Below, in pieces: positions 2,067 through 11,627 of a stretch of DNA of 11,627 nt. Under the pieces are notes generated by a model. The model worked only from the letters and a program-made list of their open reading frames with translations. It was not told where the DNA came from and did not search any database. The stretch comes from a virus (Duplodnaviria; Heunggongvirae; Uroviricota; Caudoviricetes), in IMG/VR virus record IMGVR_UViG_2531839179_000018, positions 1-11,627 of that record, one strand, 5' to 3'. Each line of letters opens with the position of its first letter. The stretch's first letter is position 1. A program made the position numbers and the translations under genes.

Positions 2067-2612
2067 TCAGGAAGAACCTTCCGGAGAGACGGGCCATTCA
2101 ATGGCGTTGTATGAGGATTTATCAGTGATGGCGCTGAAATCCATCGCCTGCAGTGATTTCGCGTAAATACGACAGGCTTTCAGCTTTTCTTTATCTTCGT
2201 CGCTGATTAACCCCAGCAGCAGGTCTTCTTCCCATTCCCCTGTCCGGGCACTGACCTGAGCCAGAAGGGCATCACGCTCATCTTCCGCTTTGAGTCTGTA
2301 GTCAAAGACAAATTCATCATTGCGGTAAAACCAGTAACCCGGCGCGGTAATCCGTCGGTTAGCGGTAATATCAGGAACTTCAATAACACTGGCATTGCGT
2401 GGCTCGATGCCTGTCACATCCTTACCGACCCACACCACACGACCGTCTCCGGTGTAAGCTATTTTTATTGTGTCGCTGGCGAAATTCTTCAGCTCTTCAT
2501 ACCAGTTTTTTCCGTCTTCTGAAAAAAGCCAGGTGACCGAATATCGTTTTGTCATCTGATATTGTTCTGCTGTTTTCGGATTACCCGCAGTAATATTTTT
2601 TAAATGCAACAT
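2067..2612 (-). CDS. Tail fibre assembly chaperone (P2 gpG / Mu U family)
   Basis: 181-aa ORF. N-terminus MLHLKNITAGNPKTAEQYQMTK...SEDGKNWYEELKNF closely resembles P2 gpG, and the C-terminus ends in the typical IEWPxxP motif. It starts 2 nt after the fibre stop. Confidence 0.8.
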   Translation of the reverse strand: MLHLKNITAGNPKTAEQYQMTKRYSVTWLFSEDGKNWYEELKNFASDTIKIAYTGDGRVVWVGKDVTGIEPRNASVIEVPDITANRRITAPGYWFYRNDEFVFDYRLKAEDERDALLAQVSARTGEWEEDLLLGLISDEDKEKLKACRIYAKSLQAMDFSAITDKSSYNAIEWPVSPEGSS

Positions 2613-2614
2613 TG

Positions 2615-3817
2615 TTAAATACTCGCTACGTTATACCAGGTGCCATTAATCAGTTTTTGCAGTGGTCGGTAATACACACCGTCAACGTTATCCGCTGAGT
2701 TACGGCCGGTATCCGATATCGCCATCCCTGACAGCCCGTGTCCCGAAGGTGCGCAAAATCTCCACGAAACGGTGTTACTGCCGGGGCTGTAATACATTTC
2801 ATGGCCATACCGTACATCCTGTACCCCCTCTGTTCGATATTTATAGCGGGCATCGAAGTTTCCGTAATTTAACGGAATTACCTGTCCGTTAACAGTGAAC
2901 ACTATGCTGTTATCCGGGTTTCTCTGGCTGAAAAAATGCCAGCCTGAATCATCACCAAGCTCTGCAACAACAGGCCTGGATGGATTACCCCACAAACAAA
3001 ACGCTGCATTTTTCGTGGAGTTGTTGGCGCTGGATAACGTGAATTTTCTGGCAGTTCCGGCCTGAATATTCTTAAAAGCAATAGCCACGCCATTCTGAAA
3101 ACGAAATACATGCTGTCCATTCGCATAAACATCCAGCAGACCATCGCCATTTTGTTTAAACCCGGTATCGTTATCTCCTAAAACGATTGAACTTCCACCT
3201 AACGCATTCGTCGTACCAATGCCAAGGCAACCATTAATGACGGCATTAACCAGAATATTTAGTGTATCCCATTTGAGATTCATCAGGTCTTTAACCCGGC
3301 CGCCAGCGAGGCGGTGTCTCCATTTGAAATATTCATTACCGTTATCCGCCGTTTCAAACCACATGTAGGAATCGGTGTCTGCATCCGAATCATTTTTAAA
3401 TCCAATCTTCGCCCAGTCAGTATTCCGAATCCAGGCGAGGATTGAGTCGTTTTCAAAAGTAAGTCCACCGGACAAGGTATCGCCTTCCTGATGAACATAG
3501 CGTTGATCTGACTGCTCTTTACTGTAAACCTGAAGATTATCCCGTGCCGTCCCTTTATTCTGAAGGTCTGACAGATTGTTCTTCTGCCGCAGGAATATCC
3601 TTTTCGGATCCTCAAGAAGATTTACCCAGCCCGCACTGTCGGAGCCTTCAGGATCGGTCAGGTTATCGTCTGTGGTATTCAGCCAGACCGCTGTTGTTGC
3701 GACTCCGGCGAGAATGGCTCCTTTTGCATATCCACCAATGGCCCCCGCAAAACCGGCATTATACGTGTACAAACCGCCAGCCTGGGCGAACCGTATTGCT
3801 GCGGTAATATCGTACAT
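2615..3817 (-). CDS. Tail fibre protein, major C-terminal portion (P2 gpH / Mu S-like); 3' segment of a gene interrupted at a G10 tract
   Basis: 400-aa ORF containing the conserved fibre C-terminal block ([32 protein letters not shown]...[10 protein letters not shown]). Its frame stays open upstream of the ATG through the homopolymer to a stop at 3872-3874. Confidence 0.8.
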
Positions 3818-3824
3818 CAGACCG

Positions 3825-4016
3825 TTAAAATCCTTGCCGTGTGGCGGTCCCCCCCCCCGCTGAGACCGCTGTCATGGTCGTCGGAGGAAAACCTGAATCA
3901 TACGCAGCATTACCGCTCTCTCTGGTCTGCTGTGTCGCCTTGTCCGGGATACGGTTTTTATCTCCGGTACTCGCAAAGGGGACCGCCAGCTGGCGGGGTT
4001 TATCACTGGCCTTCAT
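3825..4016 (-). CDS. Tail fibre protein, N-terminal segment (5' part of the interrupted fibre gene)
   Basis: 63-aa ORF with a strong Shine-Dalgarno (AAGGAG, 7-nt spacing) before its ATG. It reads through the G10 tract as Gly-Gly-Gly and terminates 8 codons later, in a different frame from the 400-aa ORF. Confidence 0.6.
3849..3858. repeat. Homopolymeric tract, C10 on the plus strand (G10 in the coding sense) inside the tail fibre gene
   Basis: Counted directly from sequence. It lies exactly at the frame change between ORF 3825-4016 and ORF 2615-3817. Confidence 0.95.
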
Positions 4017-4608
4017 TACGGGACTCCTTTAAAACTACTGAAACATAAACACCCGGCGGGGACGGCAGTGCACCCGACGACTGGATAATCGCCAGTTCTG
4101 CCGACGAGAGCGCGGACTCAAAGACGTAACTCATCCTCAGCCCGCCATTATTCAGAACATAAGCCCGGCGTTTTTTTCCGAACATAAACCTCAGCATCCG
4201 GTTAATATCCGGAACGGAACAGTCAGTAATATTCGACATGGCTTTCATCAGGATCAGTCGCCGGTATATGGCATCAGTCAGGTCAACAGTCCGGGTAACC
4301 GATTTTCCGTTGTAAAACGGTGCCTGATTAAACGGGCGGGAATCATCCATTACCGGGGTGTCCATCCTGGACTCGCTGAAGCCCAGGTAATTAAAATCGT
4401 CCTTTACCGTCAGCCGGCGACTGACACCCACAATCTTTCCCCAGACATCAAGACCATACTTTTCTGCGGTATCGATGTTCCAGATAAGACCATAAAAATC
4501 ACTGATAAAACTGTCGGGGGAAAGCGCTGCGTTAAAGCTGTTAATGAGGGCATTGAGTCGGGAGCTGGCAGCATACTGCGCAAGCACAGTGGCAGCCACA
4601 TTCTGCAC
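4003..4608 (-). CDS. Baseplate/tail protein in the gpI / Mu gp48 position
   Basis: 201-aa ORF between the J-like gene and the fibre gene. The call rests on synteny with P2 (V-W-J-I-H-G) and Mu (gp45-gp48, S, U); I cannot confirm the sequence family by eye. Confidence 0.45.
4024..4028 (-). promoter_or_regulatory. Shine-Dalgarno sequence for the tail fibre gene start at 4016
   Basis: The minus-strand mRNA reads AAAGGAGUCCCGUA-AUG, giving an AGGAG core 7 nt upstream of the ATG. Confidence 0.6.
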
Positions 4609-4609
4609 G

Positions 4610-5392
4610 TTATGCCTCCTGGAGTTTCACACTGATATCCGACACATCCAGAACCGGAATCTCATCTATCCCGAAAGTGACAGCCGTTGTCCATGACGAA
4701 CCGTCACGGCTCACAGTAAGGCCCAGAATATCAATATGTTCCGGATCGGTTTTGTAAATGCCGGCATAGTAGCGCCCGGCAGAGACAACAGAGGCAACTC
4801 TTGCCCGCAGACCACCATCTGTACCATTAAATGCGTCCAGCACGGATTGCTGTACCTGTCGGGTAATATCTGAAGGCAGGTAGTCACTTTTTTTCAGCGT
4901 CACACTGACATGCAGACTGACGGGTTTGAGTGTCTGCCAGCTGATCACGTATTCAGGATACGGCGGATCGTACTCCTTATCTGCAACAGTGAACGTTGTG
5001 TTGCCATTCATATCAATACCCGGCGGAGCCTTACGCCAGATGGCCGCCGCGATATCTGCCGGGCTGCCGCCGTACACGCCAACATAAAGCGAACCGGGTG
5101 TTAATGGATACTGACTGACTCCGGCTTTTTGTTCTGTTTTTTTCGGATTATGGGTGACGTAAACATCCACCACGTTTTCTACCGTGGAGAGTATTTCACC
5201 CCGGATGGCTTCCAGAATATTCCGGGCATTACGGGCAACTGAATTACGTCGGCGGTTTTCAAAGTCCGCACGGGTTTCCTCATCGCTGCCCGGCACACCG
5301 GCACGGGCGTTAGTGACACCTGACCAGCCAGGTATTGCCTTATAAATTTTATTCAGCGTCCCCACAGGACAGCCGACGGGGCCGGTGGACAA
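4610..5392 (-). CDS. Baseplate J-like protein, C-terminal portion (3' segment of an apparently frameshifted gene)
   Basis: 260-aa ORF that begins at TTG with no Shine-Dalgarno. Its frame is open a further ~20 codons upstream and overlaps the end of ORF 5395-5847; the two ORFs together (~410 aa) match baseplate-J size and position. Confidence 0.6.
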   Translation of the reverse strand: MSTGPVGCPVGTLNKIYKAIPGWSGVTNARAGVPGSDEETRADFENRRRNSVARNARNILEAIRGEILSTVENVVDVYVTHNPKKTEQKAGVSQYPLTPGSLYVGVYGGSPADIAAAIWRKAPPGIDMNGNTTFTVADKEYDPPYPEYVISWQTLKPVSLHVSVTLKKSDYLPSDITRQVQQSVLDAFNGTDGGLRARVASVVSAGRYYAGIYKTDPEHIDILGLTVSRDGSSWTTAVTFGIDEIPVLDVSDISVKLQEA

Positions 5393-5394
5393 AT

Positions 5395-5847
5395 TCAGAA
5401 ATACCGCATCAACCTGCCCTGATGCGCCGATAGTGACGTCTGACTGACATACTTATAACCGGCCTCATCCTGCGCCATACTGCTCGCCGGGATCAGCGTG
5501 CCAACCAGCCCGGTACAGGTCGCTGTTACTGTCGTACCTGTGGCCCCACGGCGCTCCAGGAAATAAATCCTGCCTATTGCATCCTGAAAGCGACCACTGA
5601 AAAAGTCAGGGTTGATCTGGTTAACGATATACAGCAACTGATCGTTTTTATCCGCAATAATGGCGCTTTCGCTGGATGCAAGTTGTCCCTGCGGACTGCT
5701 CAGACTGGTACTCATGGCCCCGCCCAGCGCCGCCGAAAAATCAGCAAGCCTGCCGCTCAGAATATCCGCTTCATCCGGCACATTCAGCCCGCTATCCGAA
5801 ATCTGTACAGCGGGCACTGCGGTAGAAAAAGATTTATTTTCACTCAT
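5395..5847 (-). CDS. Baseplate J-like protein, N-terminal portion (5' segment of an apparently frameshifted gene)
   Basis: 150-aa ORF whose start overlaps the upstream gene by 4 nt. It stops at TGA (5395-5397), 2 nt before the downstream ORF's first codon, which is in another frame. Confidence 0.6.
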   Translation of the reverse strand: MSENKSFSTAVPAVQISDSGLNVPDEADILSGRLADFSAALGGAMSTSLSSPQGQLASSESAIIADKNDQLLYIVNQINPDFFSGRFQDAIGRIYFLERRGATGTTVTATCTGLVGTLIPASSMAQDEAGYKYVSQTSLSAHQGRLMRYF

Positions 5848-6890: not shown

Positions 6891-7740
6891 TTTCTTCAGC
6901 CCTCATCATGGTACAGTTGGAACTCCACGGACCGCCCACGGTTCGCGAAGTAATGGTGTGTATCACCCCTGTGATCGTATAATCGCCCGTCATATCAGGC
7001 AGTGACGATTCCAGATGCGCTGGCCTGCCAGTAAAGAGATCGGGGCAGAATATCGTGGTGGCGCTGAGTCCGGTCATGGTGTAAACCGGATAGCCAGTCA
7101 GTCCGTGATCCGGCGAAATCAGTACCGGCGGAATATTCCGGTTCTGCCCTTTCGGCCAGATGGTGACTTTCTCCACATTCCCCAGATCAATGTTAATATC
7201 GGCGGCTGAAGCGACATCCAGCATTTGTTGTACAACATTACCGGAAAAATGCGGGTCAGACAGACTGCGGCTGACCCCCTGGTTTTCAAATCCAAGCCCG
7301 ACAGTTGACGCCAGCGCACGGATAATATCTGCAACCGCAACATCGCCCTTTGCGCTGAAATCTGCCGCCGGCTGATTACGCAGATTAAAATGAATCTGTC
7401 CTGTCAGAATGAGCGGAATATCCGGCGCCTGGTTGTAGTCGGCGTATGCATCAGTAATATCACCTTCAAAAATAAGCCGCCCGTCGGCCCACAGCCGCAT
7501 TTTATTTGCGGTACTCTGCTCCTGTCGCCACACACCGCGCCAGCTTAAATTCGTCATATGCGCCGGTGACATTCCCCAGATATACAGCGTGATTTGTGTA
7601 CCAGCCACCCCTCCATATACGGCAATACTGGCAAAACAGCTTGCGTCGGTAATGGTCAGCATATTGCCCTGGCCATTACCAAACGTTCGTCCGTCTGAAA
7701 GAGTGAACTCCACCGTTATTTTACGTTGTCTGTAGCTCAT
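6871..7740 (-). CDS. Tail/baseplate protein, possibly hub-like (Mu gp44 position)
   Basis: 289-aa ORF immediately upstream of the spike gene, with a start that overlaps the stop of the upstream fragment. Function is inferred from position only. Confidence 0.4.
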
Positions 7741-7959
7741 ATCAGTTCCTCAGGTAACAGCCAGTAGAGCCGGTACCGGGATCCGAGCCCCCGCCAGTCA
7801 GGGTCACTATTCCCCTCCGTGTCGGTAAAAAACAGGTCCCCCTGAAACGGCAGGTATCCGTACCGGACAATCCGGTTATTATTCAGACACAGCACGCCAT
7901 ACAGGCACGGTTCACCATTAACAATGATATCGATATACATCCCCGTAGTACGCTGATTC
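7737..7959 (-). pseudogene. 3' remnant (~74 codons) of a phage tail gene truncated by the IS66-family insertion
   Basis: The reading frame is open from the IS66 end at 7960 down to the stop at 7737-7739, and is translationally coupled to the next gene. The 5' part of the gene is replaced by IS sequence. Confidence 0.45.
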
Positions 7960-8897: not shown

Positions 8898-9224
8898 TGA
8901 GGTAGCCTGAGTTTAACGGACACTCCTTCCTGAAATAGAATGGCATCAGAAGGAGCTAATAATGAGCAGAAAAACCCAACGTTACTCTAAAGAGTTCAAA
9001 GCCGAAGCTGTCAGAACGGTTCTTGAAAATCAACTTTCGATCAGTGAAGGCGCTTCCCGATTATCCCTTCCTGAAGGCACTTTAGGACAATGGGTTACCG
9101 CCGCCAGAAAAGGGCTCGGTACTCCTGGTTCCCGCACGGTGGCTGAACTGGAATCTGAAATTCTGCAACTGCGTAAGGCGTTAAATGAAGCTCGCCTTGA
9201 GCGAGATATATTAAAAAAAGCAAC
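8898..9224 (+). mobile_element. IS3-family element (IS600-like), 5' end only: left terminal repeat plus orfA up to the frameshift window
   Basis: The left end TGAGGTAGCCTGAGTTTAACGG resembles the IS911 left end. OrfA begins at 8962 with a Shine-Dalgarno, and the element is cut at 9224 by IS30. Confidence 0.7.
8962..9224 (+). pseudogene. IS3-family OrfA (IS600-like), truncated after ...DILKKAT by IS30
   Basis: Translation MSRKTQRYSKEFKAEAVRTVLENQLSISEGASRLS... has an HTH and leucine-zipper-like OrfA architecture. The six-frame ORF (8962-9330) runs artificially into the IS30 terminal repeat. Confidence 0.75.
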
Positions 9225-10445
9225 TGTAGATTCAATTGGTCAACGCAACAGTTATGTGAAAACATGGGGTTGCGGAGGTTTTTTGAATGAGACGAACATT
9301 TACAGCAGAGGAAAAAGCCTCTGTTTTTGAACTATGGAAGAACGGAACAGGCTTCAGTGAAATAGCGAATATCCTGGGTTCAAAACCCGGAACGATCTTC
9401 ACTATGTTAAGGGATACTGGCGGCATAAAACCCCATGAGCGTAAGCGGGCTGTAGCTCACCTGACACTGTCTGAGCGCGAGGAGATACGAGCTGGTTTGT
9501 CAGCCAAAATGAGCATTCGTGCGATAGCTACTGCGCTGAATCGCAGTCCTTCGACGATCTCACGTGAAGTTCAGCGTAATCGGGGCAGACGCTATTACAA
9601 AGCTGTTGATGCTAATAACCGAGCCAACAGAATGGCGAAAAGGCCAAAACCGTGCTTACTGGATCAAAATTTACCATTGCGAAAGCTTGTTCTGGAAAAG
9701 CTGGAGATGAAATGGTCTCCAGAGCAAATATCAGGATGGTTAAGGCGAACAAAACCACGTCAAAAAACGCTGCGAATATCACCTGAGACAATTTATAAAA
9801 CGCTGTACTTTCGTAGCCGTGAAGCGCTACACCACCTGAATATACAGCATCTGCGACGGTCGCATAGCCTTCGCCATGGCAGGCGTCATACCCGCAAAGG
9901 CGAAAGAGGTACGATTAACATAGTGAACGGAACACCAATTCACGAACGTTCCCGAAATATCGATAACAGACGCTCTCTGGGGCATTGGGAGGGCGATTTA
10001 GTCTCAGGTACAAAAAACTCTCATATAGCCACACTTGTAGACCGAAAATCACGTTATACGATCATCCTTAGACTCAGGGGCAAAGATTCTGTCTCAGTAA
10101 ATCAGGCTCTTACCGACAAATTCCTGAGTTTACCGTCAGAACTCAGAAAATCACTGACATGGGACAGAGGAATGGAACTGGCCAGACATCTAGAATTTAC
10201 TGTCAGCACCGGCGTTAAAGTTTACTTCTGCGATCCTCAGAGTCCTTGGCAGCGGGGAACAAATGAGAACACAAATGGGCTAATTCGGCAGTACTTTCCT
10301 AAAAAGACATGTCTTGCCCAATATACTCAACATGAACTAGATCTGGTTGCTGCTCAGCTAAACAACAGACCGAGAAAGACACTGAAGTTCAAAACACCGA
10401 AAGAGATAATTGAAAGGGGTGTTGCATTGACAGATTGAATCTACA
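9225..10445 (+). mobile_element. IS30, complete (1221 bp) with 26-bp imperfect terminal inverted repeats
   Basis: Left repeat 9225-9250 (tgtagattcaattggtcaacgcaaca) and right repeat 10420-10445 (reverse complement tgtagattcaatctgtcaatgcaaca) match at 23 of 26 positions. Length and single-transposase organisation match IS30. Confidence 0.9.
9287..10438 (+). CDS. insI: IS30 transposase (383 aa), intact
   Basis: Full-length ORF with an N-terminal HTH region and a DDE-type catalytic core; its stop lies inside the right terminal repeat. Confidence 0.9.
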
Positions 10446-10708
10446 GTAGCCTTTTTTAATATTTCATTCTCCATTTCAATGCGTTGTAGCTTTTTCCTCA
10501 GCTTACGTATTTCGATTTGTTCTGGTGTTATCGGAGAGGCTTTTGGTGTTTTGCCCTGACGCTCATCACGCAGTTGTTTGACCCATCTTGTCATTGTGGA
10601 AAGGCCAACATCCATAGCTTTGGCGGCATCTGCCACCGTGTATTTCTGGTCAACAACCAGTTGAGCGGATTCGCGTTTAAACTCTGCGCTAAAATTTCTT
10701 TTTTTCAT
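10446..10708 (-). pseudogene. insN: IS911 OrfA, truncated after ...EILKKAT by IS30
   Basis: Translation [51 protein letters not shown]... is the IS911 OrfA N-terminus as I recall it. The six-frame ORF (10358-10744) is a chimera that adds upstream codons and reads into IS30. Confidence 0.8.
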
Positions 10709-10780
10709 TGGAGCACCTGTGTTGTTCTGAGGTGAGCATATCACCTCTGTTCAGGTGGCCAAATTCAGTGTGCCACTTCA
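10446..10780 (-). mobile_element. IS911 (IS3 family), 5' end only, inverted relative to the IS600-like fragment
   Basis: On the minus strand the element begins TGAAGTGGCACACTGAATTTGGCCACC at 10780 and OrfA starts at 10708. It is cut at 10446 by the IS30 right end. Confidence 0.8.
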
Positions 10781-11627
10781 TATCTTAAACTACCGGAATG
10801 AACTGCTGCATGGAGAAACGCTTTACCTAGATAATCCAAGATCCAACAAAAAAGGAAGAACCGTGCGCACAGTTGATAACTATATCGCCCTGCTCTGTTC
10901 GTTGTTACGTTTTGCGTATCAGTCGGGATTTATATCAACCAAACCATTTGAAGGAGTAAAAAAATTACAGCGAAACAGAATAAAGCCTGACCCGTTATCT
11001 AAAACAGAATTCAATGCATTAATGGAAAGTGAAAAAGGACAGAGCCAAAACTTGTGGAAATTTGCCGTTTACTCCGGGCTTCGTCACGGGGAACTGGCAG
11101 CTCTGGCGTGGGAGGATGTGGATTTCGAGAAGGGAATTGTGAATGTCAGAAGAAACCTGACGATACTTGATATGTTCGGTCCCCCAAAAACAAATGCCGG
11201 GATCCGGACGGTAACATTACTGCAGCCGGCTCTTGAAGCACTGAAGGAGCAATACAAACTGACCGGGCATCATCGCAAAAGCGAAATCACTTTTTATCAT
11301 CGGGAGTACGGCAGAACTGAAAAGCAAAAACTGCATTTTGTTTTCATGCCCAGGGTGTGTAACGAAAAACAGAAACCTTATTACTCGGTAAGCAGTTTGG
11401 GTGCAAGATGGAATGCAGCAGTAAAACGTGCTGGTATTCGCCGCCGTAATCCGTACCATACGCGACATACTTTTGCCTGCTGGCTGTTGACGGCAGGAGC
11501 GAACCCGGCATTTATAGCCAGCCAGATGGGGCATGAAACTGCGCAAATGGTGTATGAAATTTACGGTATGTGGATTGATGACATGAACGACGAACAGATA
11601 GCCATGTTGAATGCGCGGTTATCGTAG
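10781..11627 (+). pseudogene. Tyrosine recombinase (phage integrase), 5'-truncated; C-terminal catalytic domain present
   Basis: C-terminus carries catalytic-domain motifs (HTRHTFA...MGHETAQMVYEIY with the tyrosine nucleophile). The N-terminal domains are absent; sequence upstream of 10781 is the IS911 end, and the ORF's apparent start (GTG at 10755) lies inside it. Confidence 0.8.

Follow-up and report, generated by a model that had tools for sequence, protein, structure and literature searches.

Gene content and decay of the locus

The stretch of DNA analysed here, referred to as the window, is 11,627 nucleotides long, and the genes on its minus strand form the tail module of a myovirus (Table 1). 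They encode the hub (E217_GP41), spike, sheath initiator, baseplate J, a DUF2612 wedge protein and a tail fibre, and the module continues with a Caudo_TAP chaperone, a second fibre (phage_tail_N) and a DUF4376 gene. The second tail-fibre gene (775-2043, Prophage tail fibre N-terminal domain) is intact and lies downstream of the chaperone. It is overlapped by the DUF4376 gene (201-824), whose ORF contains an A8/T8 run at 696-703. The same module was found in nine complete E. coli genomes, several of them of human stool origin, with 97-99% identity, and there the fibre gene is intact and encodes 410 or 466 aa. The intact prophage of E. coli FDAARGOS_943 has the T3SS effector gene ipaH3 after it (L001, 10988-12703), and in the Shigella loci (L015) the prophage remnant adjoins a sitABCD-like ABC transporter operon.

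Table 1. Features of the prophage remnant and its flank, in window coordinates
Feature	Position	Strand	Remark
Tail-fibre assembly chaperone (Caudo_TAP), intact	2067..2612	-	Domain match
3' fragment of the tail-fibre gene	2615..3871	-	Gp34_trimer Pfam match; C-terminal 293 aa 68% identical to P2 gpH
85-nt segment at the probable mosaic joint in the fibre	3400..3485	-	94-99% identical to P2 H, P1 S, P7 Sv' and SfMu fibre genes
5' fragment of the tail-fibre gene, 63 aa	3825..4016	-	Shine-Dalgarno AAGGAG at 4024-4029
G10 homopolymer	3849..3858	-	Frameshift allele of a length-variable tract; from comparison with relatives, unoccupied form of an ISEc20 insertion site
DUF2612 / baseplate wedge gene	4003..4608	-	Overlaps the fibre start by 14 nt
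Baseplate J/gp47, split into 150-aa and 260-aa ORFs	4610..5847	-	4-bp deletion near 5449
Baseplate-plug gene, 3' two-thirds	7737..7959	-	Homology to intact prophages ends at 7959
IS66-family transposase fragment, 296 aa	7992..8882	-	Abuts the truncation; more IS genes to ~10744

The prophage is truncated at 7959, since homology to the intact prophages ends there, inside the baseplate-plug gene. This gene has no 5' end in the window, and the upstream part of the element is missing. Beyond the truncation and the IS66-family fragment lie IS3-type OrfA genes (8962-9330 and 10358-10744), an IS30-like transposase gene (9287-10438) and an ORF of the phage integrase family (10755-11627) that runs off the end of the window. 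The lesion in baseplate J is the loss of one repeat unit, from (GTCA)3 to (GTCA)2, and the E. coli relatives keep a gene of 413 aa. Within the Shigella sub-lineage, L020 (CP026836) alone retains (GTCA)3, and every other locus has (GTCA)2. This retention conflicts with the SNP tree and suggests that slippage at the GTCA repeat is recurrent. The truncation at the IS66 fragment, the loss of the 5' end of the plug gene and the 4-bp deletion in baseplate J are inactivating lesions additional to that of the fibre gene, and the prophage is a dead remnant.

The split tail-fibre gene

The ten G are at 3858-3849 on the minus strand, which is the coding sense, and appear as C10 on the plus strand. The minus strand from 3860 to 3840 reads GC GGGGGGGGGG ACCGCCAC, within the wider context ...ACAGCGGTCTCAGC GGGGGGGGGG ACCGCCACACGG.... 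This run is the sole homopolymer of at least nine bases in the window, the second longest being an A8. The expectation of a G10/C10 run in dinucleotide shuffles is 0.07, and such a run was present in 7 of 200 shuffles.

The ATG of the fibre gene at 4016 follows its Shine-Dalgarno motif at a spacing of 7 nt. From this start the frame runs for 56 codons to ...SAGGG, continues as TATRQGF and stops at 3825. A second frame stays open over 418 codons between 3871 and its stop at 2615, and translation from the earliest ATG in it, at 3817, gives a product of 400 aa. The G10 run lies between the two, and a run of nine or twelve G joins them; deletion of one G in silico fused the 63-codon and 3' frames into a fibre of 466 aa. 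A preliminary description of the sequence had placed a splitting G10 run at this position, with a strong Shine-Dalgarno motif before the start at 4016, a 400-codon ORF in the other frame that stays open upstream through the tract, and fusion of both parts with 9 or 12 G. The sequence and its ORFs agree with each of these points, the G12 case being realised in strain L026 with a 467-aa ORF. Its figure of 56 codons into the tract is likewise correct, and the stop that it put eight codons further on comes after seven sense codons.

Residues 174-466 of the fused fibre are 67.9% identical to P2 gpH (tblastn, E 4e-123), and residues 1-173, which include the tract, gave no match among sequenced phages. 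The fibre is therefore a mosaic, and its designation as P2 gpH-like holds for the C-terminal 293 residues but not for the N-terminal ~170. The 85-nt segment within the gene also occurs in hundreds of E. coli prophage fibres, with flanks that are far more diverged, and is probably a recombination joint for the exchange of fibre tips.

The tract site in homologous prophages

The common sequence of homologues at the tract site is GGGAGGTATA, with the codons GCG GGA GGT ATA CCG (AGGIP). It was found in seven of the nine complete E. coli genomes, in both GTDB matches, S. flexneri among them, and in 12 of 13 IMG/VR matches. Two of the nine E. coli genomes carry G8+TA (GCG GGG GGG GTA CCG, AGGVP), which is in frame, and proteins with AGGVPP were found on 16 and 8 contigs. 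The long G run is limited to a sub-lineage marked by a GTG to ACG change (V46T) just upstream, all named members of which are Shigella. Scanning of metagenome contigs for the tract with variable spacing yielded zero matches, and scanning of genome contigs yielded two, both with the ancestral GGGAGGTATA. The comparison with homologous prophages that had been proposed with the preliminary description thus finds the long tract absent from the intact homologues of E. coli and S. flexneri. Since the functional homologues have either GGGAGGTATA or a G8TA that is stable and in frame, conservation in the working gene does not extend to the long tract.

The distribution of these alleles suggests a stepwise origin of the run. 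A GGGAGGTATA-type site (GCG GGA GGT ATA, AGGI) would have changed to G8+TA (AGGV) in some E. coli, and in the V46T sub-lineage of Shigella a T-to-G substitution together with the gain of one G would have produced G10+A. The change from GGGAGGTATA to GGGGGGGGTA needs three substitutions in a span of eight bases, each of which introduces a G, and the DNA around them is otherwise about 99% identical (window versus L001-L009). Slippage does not explain these three clustered changes to G that separate GGGAGGTATA from G8TA. Further T-to-G changes that extend a run recur in the right flank of the tract (TA to GA), in L023 (GGGGGTG to G7) and at yfdF-fadL.

Length alleles in Shigella

Sister loci were retrieved by an exact match to the DUF2612 wedge protein, with the 400-aa ORF as a second handle. 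The G10 allele was found at the DNA level in L010-L014, L021 and L049, and its exact 63-aa product on at least 12 contigs from several S. dysenteriae assemblies (NCBI and Logan). This product is recorded as a hypothetical protein of S. dysenteriae, and the exact 400-aa product as 'putative tail fiber protein [Shigella dysenteriae 1012]'. G11 was found in that strain (L017), with a product on 20 contigs, G12 in L026 and G6 in L027, and the G13 product occurs on 2 contigs. The loci with G6, G10, G11 and G12 display 0-1 differences across 1.3 kb of flanking sequence. Products of G7, G8, G14, G16 and G17 had no exact match in the protein collection.

The reading frame across the tract varies accordingly among these alleles. 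In a small sample at the DNA level, the tract preserves the frame in two of five empty alleles. The G12 locus has an intact fibre ORF of 467 aa, yet it retains the frameshift in baseplate J, and the G6 locus is in frame at the tract and has a nonsense codon at position 77. Exact look-ups of proteins miss in-frame alleles in fragmented assemblies, where long ORFs run off short contigs, and the apparent rarity of in-frame alleles may reflect this bias. Replication slippage is most likely the cause of the differences in length, which bears out the proposal that the tract is a substrate for slipped-strand mispairing, although a part of the spread between G10, G11, G12 and G13 could be due to homopolymer miscalling.

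ISEc20 insertions within the tract

An insertion of 1.45 kb lies exactly within the tract in seven distinct records, always in a single orientation, and the inserted element is annotated in RefSeq as ISEc20 of the IS110 family. Its boundaries read CAGC-G5 / TGCCCC...GTAAC / G4-TACC in CP026836, CP119446, CP026846 and CP026877 (G5/IS/G4+TA hereafter), and a T-to-G variant of this allele is present in JARKNR010000001. In CP027027 and UYIS01000021 the boundaries are CAGC-G6 / IS / G5-ACC (G6/IS/G5+A). The G10+A allele of the window is one G short of the sum of the two flanks in G6/IS/G5+A, and G8+TA is likewise one G short of the sum in G5/IS/G4+TA. The insertion of ISEc20 inside this very tract in several complete genomes is the new observation of this study, and this role of the tract could not have been seen in the window by itself, on which the preliminary description was based.

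Of 5426 complete E. coli genomes, 1463 carry ISEc20, and the roughly 20 of its sites that were examined elsewhere mostly have G runs at their borders. Five unrelated E. coli loci have a left run of 6-8 G and a right run of 3-6 G. On IMG/VR prophage contigs about 15 sites were compared, and most of them have G4-G8 on the left and G1-G5 on the right. Three IMG/VR copies (L056, L060 and L070) have GTAACG or ATAACG at the left instead of a G run. This flank resembles the right end of ISEc20 plus one G, as if these copies had landed beside a mimic of the donor junction or a remnant of the IS. Alleles without the element are also rich in G. At yfdF-fadL in E. coli (L030 versus L051-L054) they are G6, G9, G9TG and G5TTG, and in a CP4-like region (L032 versus L074-L076) they are G7, G11 and G20. 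A run as long as G20 is most unusual in E. coli, and it could be either an expansion or an assembly error. From the occupied relatives, the G-run flanks and the G-run empty alleles elsewhere, it is shown at the level of sequence comparison that ISEc20 inserts preferentially at the tract, and the window has the unoccupied counterpart of this site.

The 5' non-coding region of ISEc20 spans 227 nt (L020 4478-4704, in IS orientation) and holds CTGCCCCCAG and CCGGGGGGTG in one long hairpin, with a C5 and a G6 run. It also contains the 9-nt sequence TAATAGGGG, which equals the last bases of the other end of the element. The minimum free energy fold pairs the C5 run with the G6 run, a pairing that does not in itself amount to a bridge-RNA architecture, and an Rfam search of ISEc20 and its junctions matched no family. 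The two runs and TAATAGGGG might be candidate guides of a bridge RNA, for a poly-G/C target and for the donor junction. Literature searches on ISEc20 and ISSfl4 turned up no account of a target preference.

Insertion or excision

Polarised SNPs divide the Shigella loci into two clades. One consists of the five G5/IS/G4+TA loci, and its sister clade contains L015 (occupied), L027 (G6), L014 (G10) and a subclade formed by the window (G10), L017 (G11) and L026 (G12). On these SNPs a single gain of the IS with two or three later losses is roughly equal in parsimony to two separate gains, and either arrival or departure of the IS may lie behind the empty and occupied alleles.

The empty alleles may be footprints of excision, a tentative reading with less than even odds. 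Here the ancestor would be G5/IS/G4+TA and then G6/IS/G5+A, from which transposase-mediated excision would leave G10+A, and a deletion between the G5 and G6 repeats would leave G6+A. It is consistent with the presence of the IS in each of the five sister-clade loci and in L015 of the clade of the window, and with the identity of the ISEc20 copies in L015, L020 and L022 over 1447 nt. It also conforms to the G counts, as the occupied total equals the empty total plus one in both fibre pairs (5+4 against G8, 6+5 against G10), and a 6+4 site at yfdF-fadL fits the G9 allele there by the same pattern. Moreover, the G6+A of L027 corresponds to one flanking repeat of G6/IS/G5+A, and a marker further downstream is common to L027 and L015. 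However, two independent insertions into an empty G run are about equally parsimonious, and an element specific for site and orientation would land alike in every case; homogeneity of the copies within a genome would by itself make the IS copies identical; and the junction of a tandem copy shows G4, which would predict another footprint. A rule taken from that G4 junction, by which insertion adds four G, was rejected: it fits yfdF-fadL only with a G6 parent and does not fit the fibre alleles. The rule of one additional G fits all three pairs but on assumed parents, and is tentative. Excision in this form refines the explanation preferred below and does not replace it.

A further proposal, more speculative than excision footprints and to our judgement rather unlikely in its full form, is that ISEc20 is RNA-guided, targets long G/C homopolymers and resizes the run through rounds of insertion and excision, so that the G10 of the window would be its footprint. 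As the register of crossover within a homopolymer is ambiguous, such rounds could lengthen or shorten the run. If this were true, ISEc20 would both make and feed hypermutable tracts at its own sites and would cause frameshifts even after leaving, and the tracts covered would be G6-G13 here, G6-G9 at yfdF-fadL and G7-G20 in the CP4-like region.

Nature of the frameshift and fate of the gene

The explanation that we prefer, with a probability of about 0.75, is that the fibre gene is an unstable poly-G frameshift pseudogene in a dead prophage, that its tract is an attachment site of ISEc20 and that there is no switch. On this account the window belongs to a Shigella dysenteriae-type genome with the decayed tail module of a myovirus prophage. 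The frameshift allele in its fibre gene (G10+A) is genuine and heritable, and the tract is prone to mutation. As for other frameshift pseudogenes, intact orthologues exist, here in nine E. coli genomes, and the disrupted allele is reproduced in independent isolates. Since the prophage is truncated and carries other lesions, the changes in length would be neutral decay rather than adaptive ON/OFF switching, with presumably no functional fibre protein made. Residual use of the fibre in trans is possible, as the fibre, the chaperone and the second fibre downstream are otherwise intact.

An error of homopolymer sequencing or assembly, with a true tract of 9 (or 12) G and an intact gene, was one of the two readings offered with the preliminary description and is improbable. 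Long G runs are error-prone on several platforms, and assemblies of very similar strains differ by giving 10, 11, 12 or 13 G. However, the exact G10 product recurs on 12 contigs across independent runs and assemblies of NCBI and Logan, and the fused G9 protein is absent from a collection of 15 billion proteins, in a look-up that is biased against long ORFs. In addition, the second frameshift common to the same strains is a deletion of a 4-bp repeat unit, which is atypical of read errors.

The other reading offered was an adaptive phase-variable switch, in which slipped-strand changes would turn a functional receptor-binding fibre ON and OFF; we give it slightly less credence still. It draws on near-identical strains with OFF alleles (G10, G11, G13) and one ON allele (G12), and on the intact chaperone and 3' part of the fibre in the window. 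Against it stand the truncation in the baseplate-plug gene, the baseplate J frameshift that the G12 strain shares, the nonsense codon in the in-frame G6 strain (L027), the interruption of the gene by an IS in seven genomes, and the functional homologues of E. coli and S. flexneri with GGGAGGTATA or a stable in-frame G8TA in place of the tract. A repeat within the ORF that shifts the frame and is polymorphic in length among relatives, as in a contingency locus, is present; a functional context and retention of the tract in working homologues, which belong to such a locus as well, are absent (truncation, frameshift, GGGAGGTATA). In view of these lesions, there is no evident context in which turning the fibre on or off would make a difference.

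Programmed recoding, by which +1 ribosomal frameshifting or transcriptional slippage on the G run would yield the full-length fibre, can be set aside as very improbable: long homopolymers can promote slippage of polymerase or ribosome and the downstream frame is open through the tract, but the shift needed differs between alleles (+1 for G10 and G13, -1 for G11, none for G6 and G12), the intact homologues are one ORF without the slippery site, and an Rfam search of the related region gave no element.

The G10 run is a hypermutable homopolymer lesion in a pseudogene that doubles as an attachment site of ISEc20. In annotation the locus should be labelled as a split fibre pseudogene in a prophage remnant, neither 'repaired' as an error nor presented as a phase-variable receptor-binding protein. 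Its interest lies more in the possible link between ISEc20 and homopolymer instability than in a fibre 'switch'. Genomes that are nearly identical show a single ISEc20 site in occupied, empty and length-variant form, and this natural series suggests that a common element of the IS110 family selects poly-G runs. If confirmed, such selection would explain where ISEc20 lands, would tie a recombinase of the bridge-RNA type to homopolymer instability, and would be a caution that a long G run in E. coli or Shigella may point to an IS site, whether present or former.

Comparison with known systems

Hypermutable polyG tracts are known from receptor-binding genes of Campylobacter phages (Sorensen et al. 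2021, Cell Rep 35:109214, cited in PMC10877375). The two cases share a poly-G run in a phage receptor-binding gene, lengths that shift the frame, differences between relatives, and both ON and OFF alleles. They differ in that the tract described here lies in a truncated and multiply mutated remnant, is absent from functional homologues and displays no sign of selection for switching. The tract is mutationally akin to a contingency locus but fails to be one by function.

Pseudogene formation and genome decay driven by IS elements have been described for Shigella, with ISEc20 among the listed IS (Hawkey et al. 2020, PMC7373316). The locus conforms to that picture in its richness in IS, its prophage cut by an IS and its frameshifts at short repeats. 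In contrast to the present analysis, PMC7373316 describes neither this tract nor a preference of ISEc20 for G runs.

A close molecular parallel for the insertions is IS621, a site-specific element of the IS110 family guided by a bridge RNA (Durrant et al. 2024, PMC11208160), in the supplement to which ISEc20 is placed with ISSfl4. Similar to IS621, ISEc20 encodes a transposase with DEDD_Tnp_IS110 and Transposase_20 domains behind about 227 nt of 5' non-coding DNA, inserts in one orientation into one type of sequence, and is bordered by the flanking motif at either end. Its 5' region, with the C5 and G6 runs and the 9-nt copy of the opposite end, may be a further point in common. Unlike that of IS621, the target is a homopolymer and not a unique sequence of REP type, and the bridge RNA is a candidate without a match in Rfam. 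A homopolymer target makes the crossover register ambiguous, and the flanks of ISEc20 vary (G4-G8 on the left, G1-G6 on the right).

IS492 of Pseudoalteromonas atlantica, another member of the IS110 family, undergoes precise excision as a mechanism of phase variation. The present case differs from IS492 in that excision of ISEc20 is putative and the empty allele of the window is itself out of frame. As with IS492, close relatives have the same intragenic site either occupied or empty, and here the two states differ by the element plus one base.
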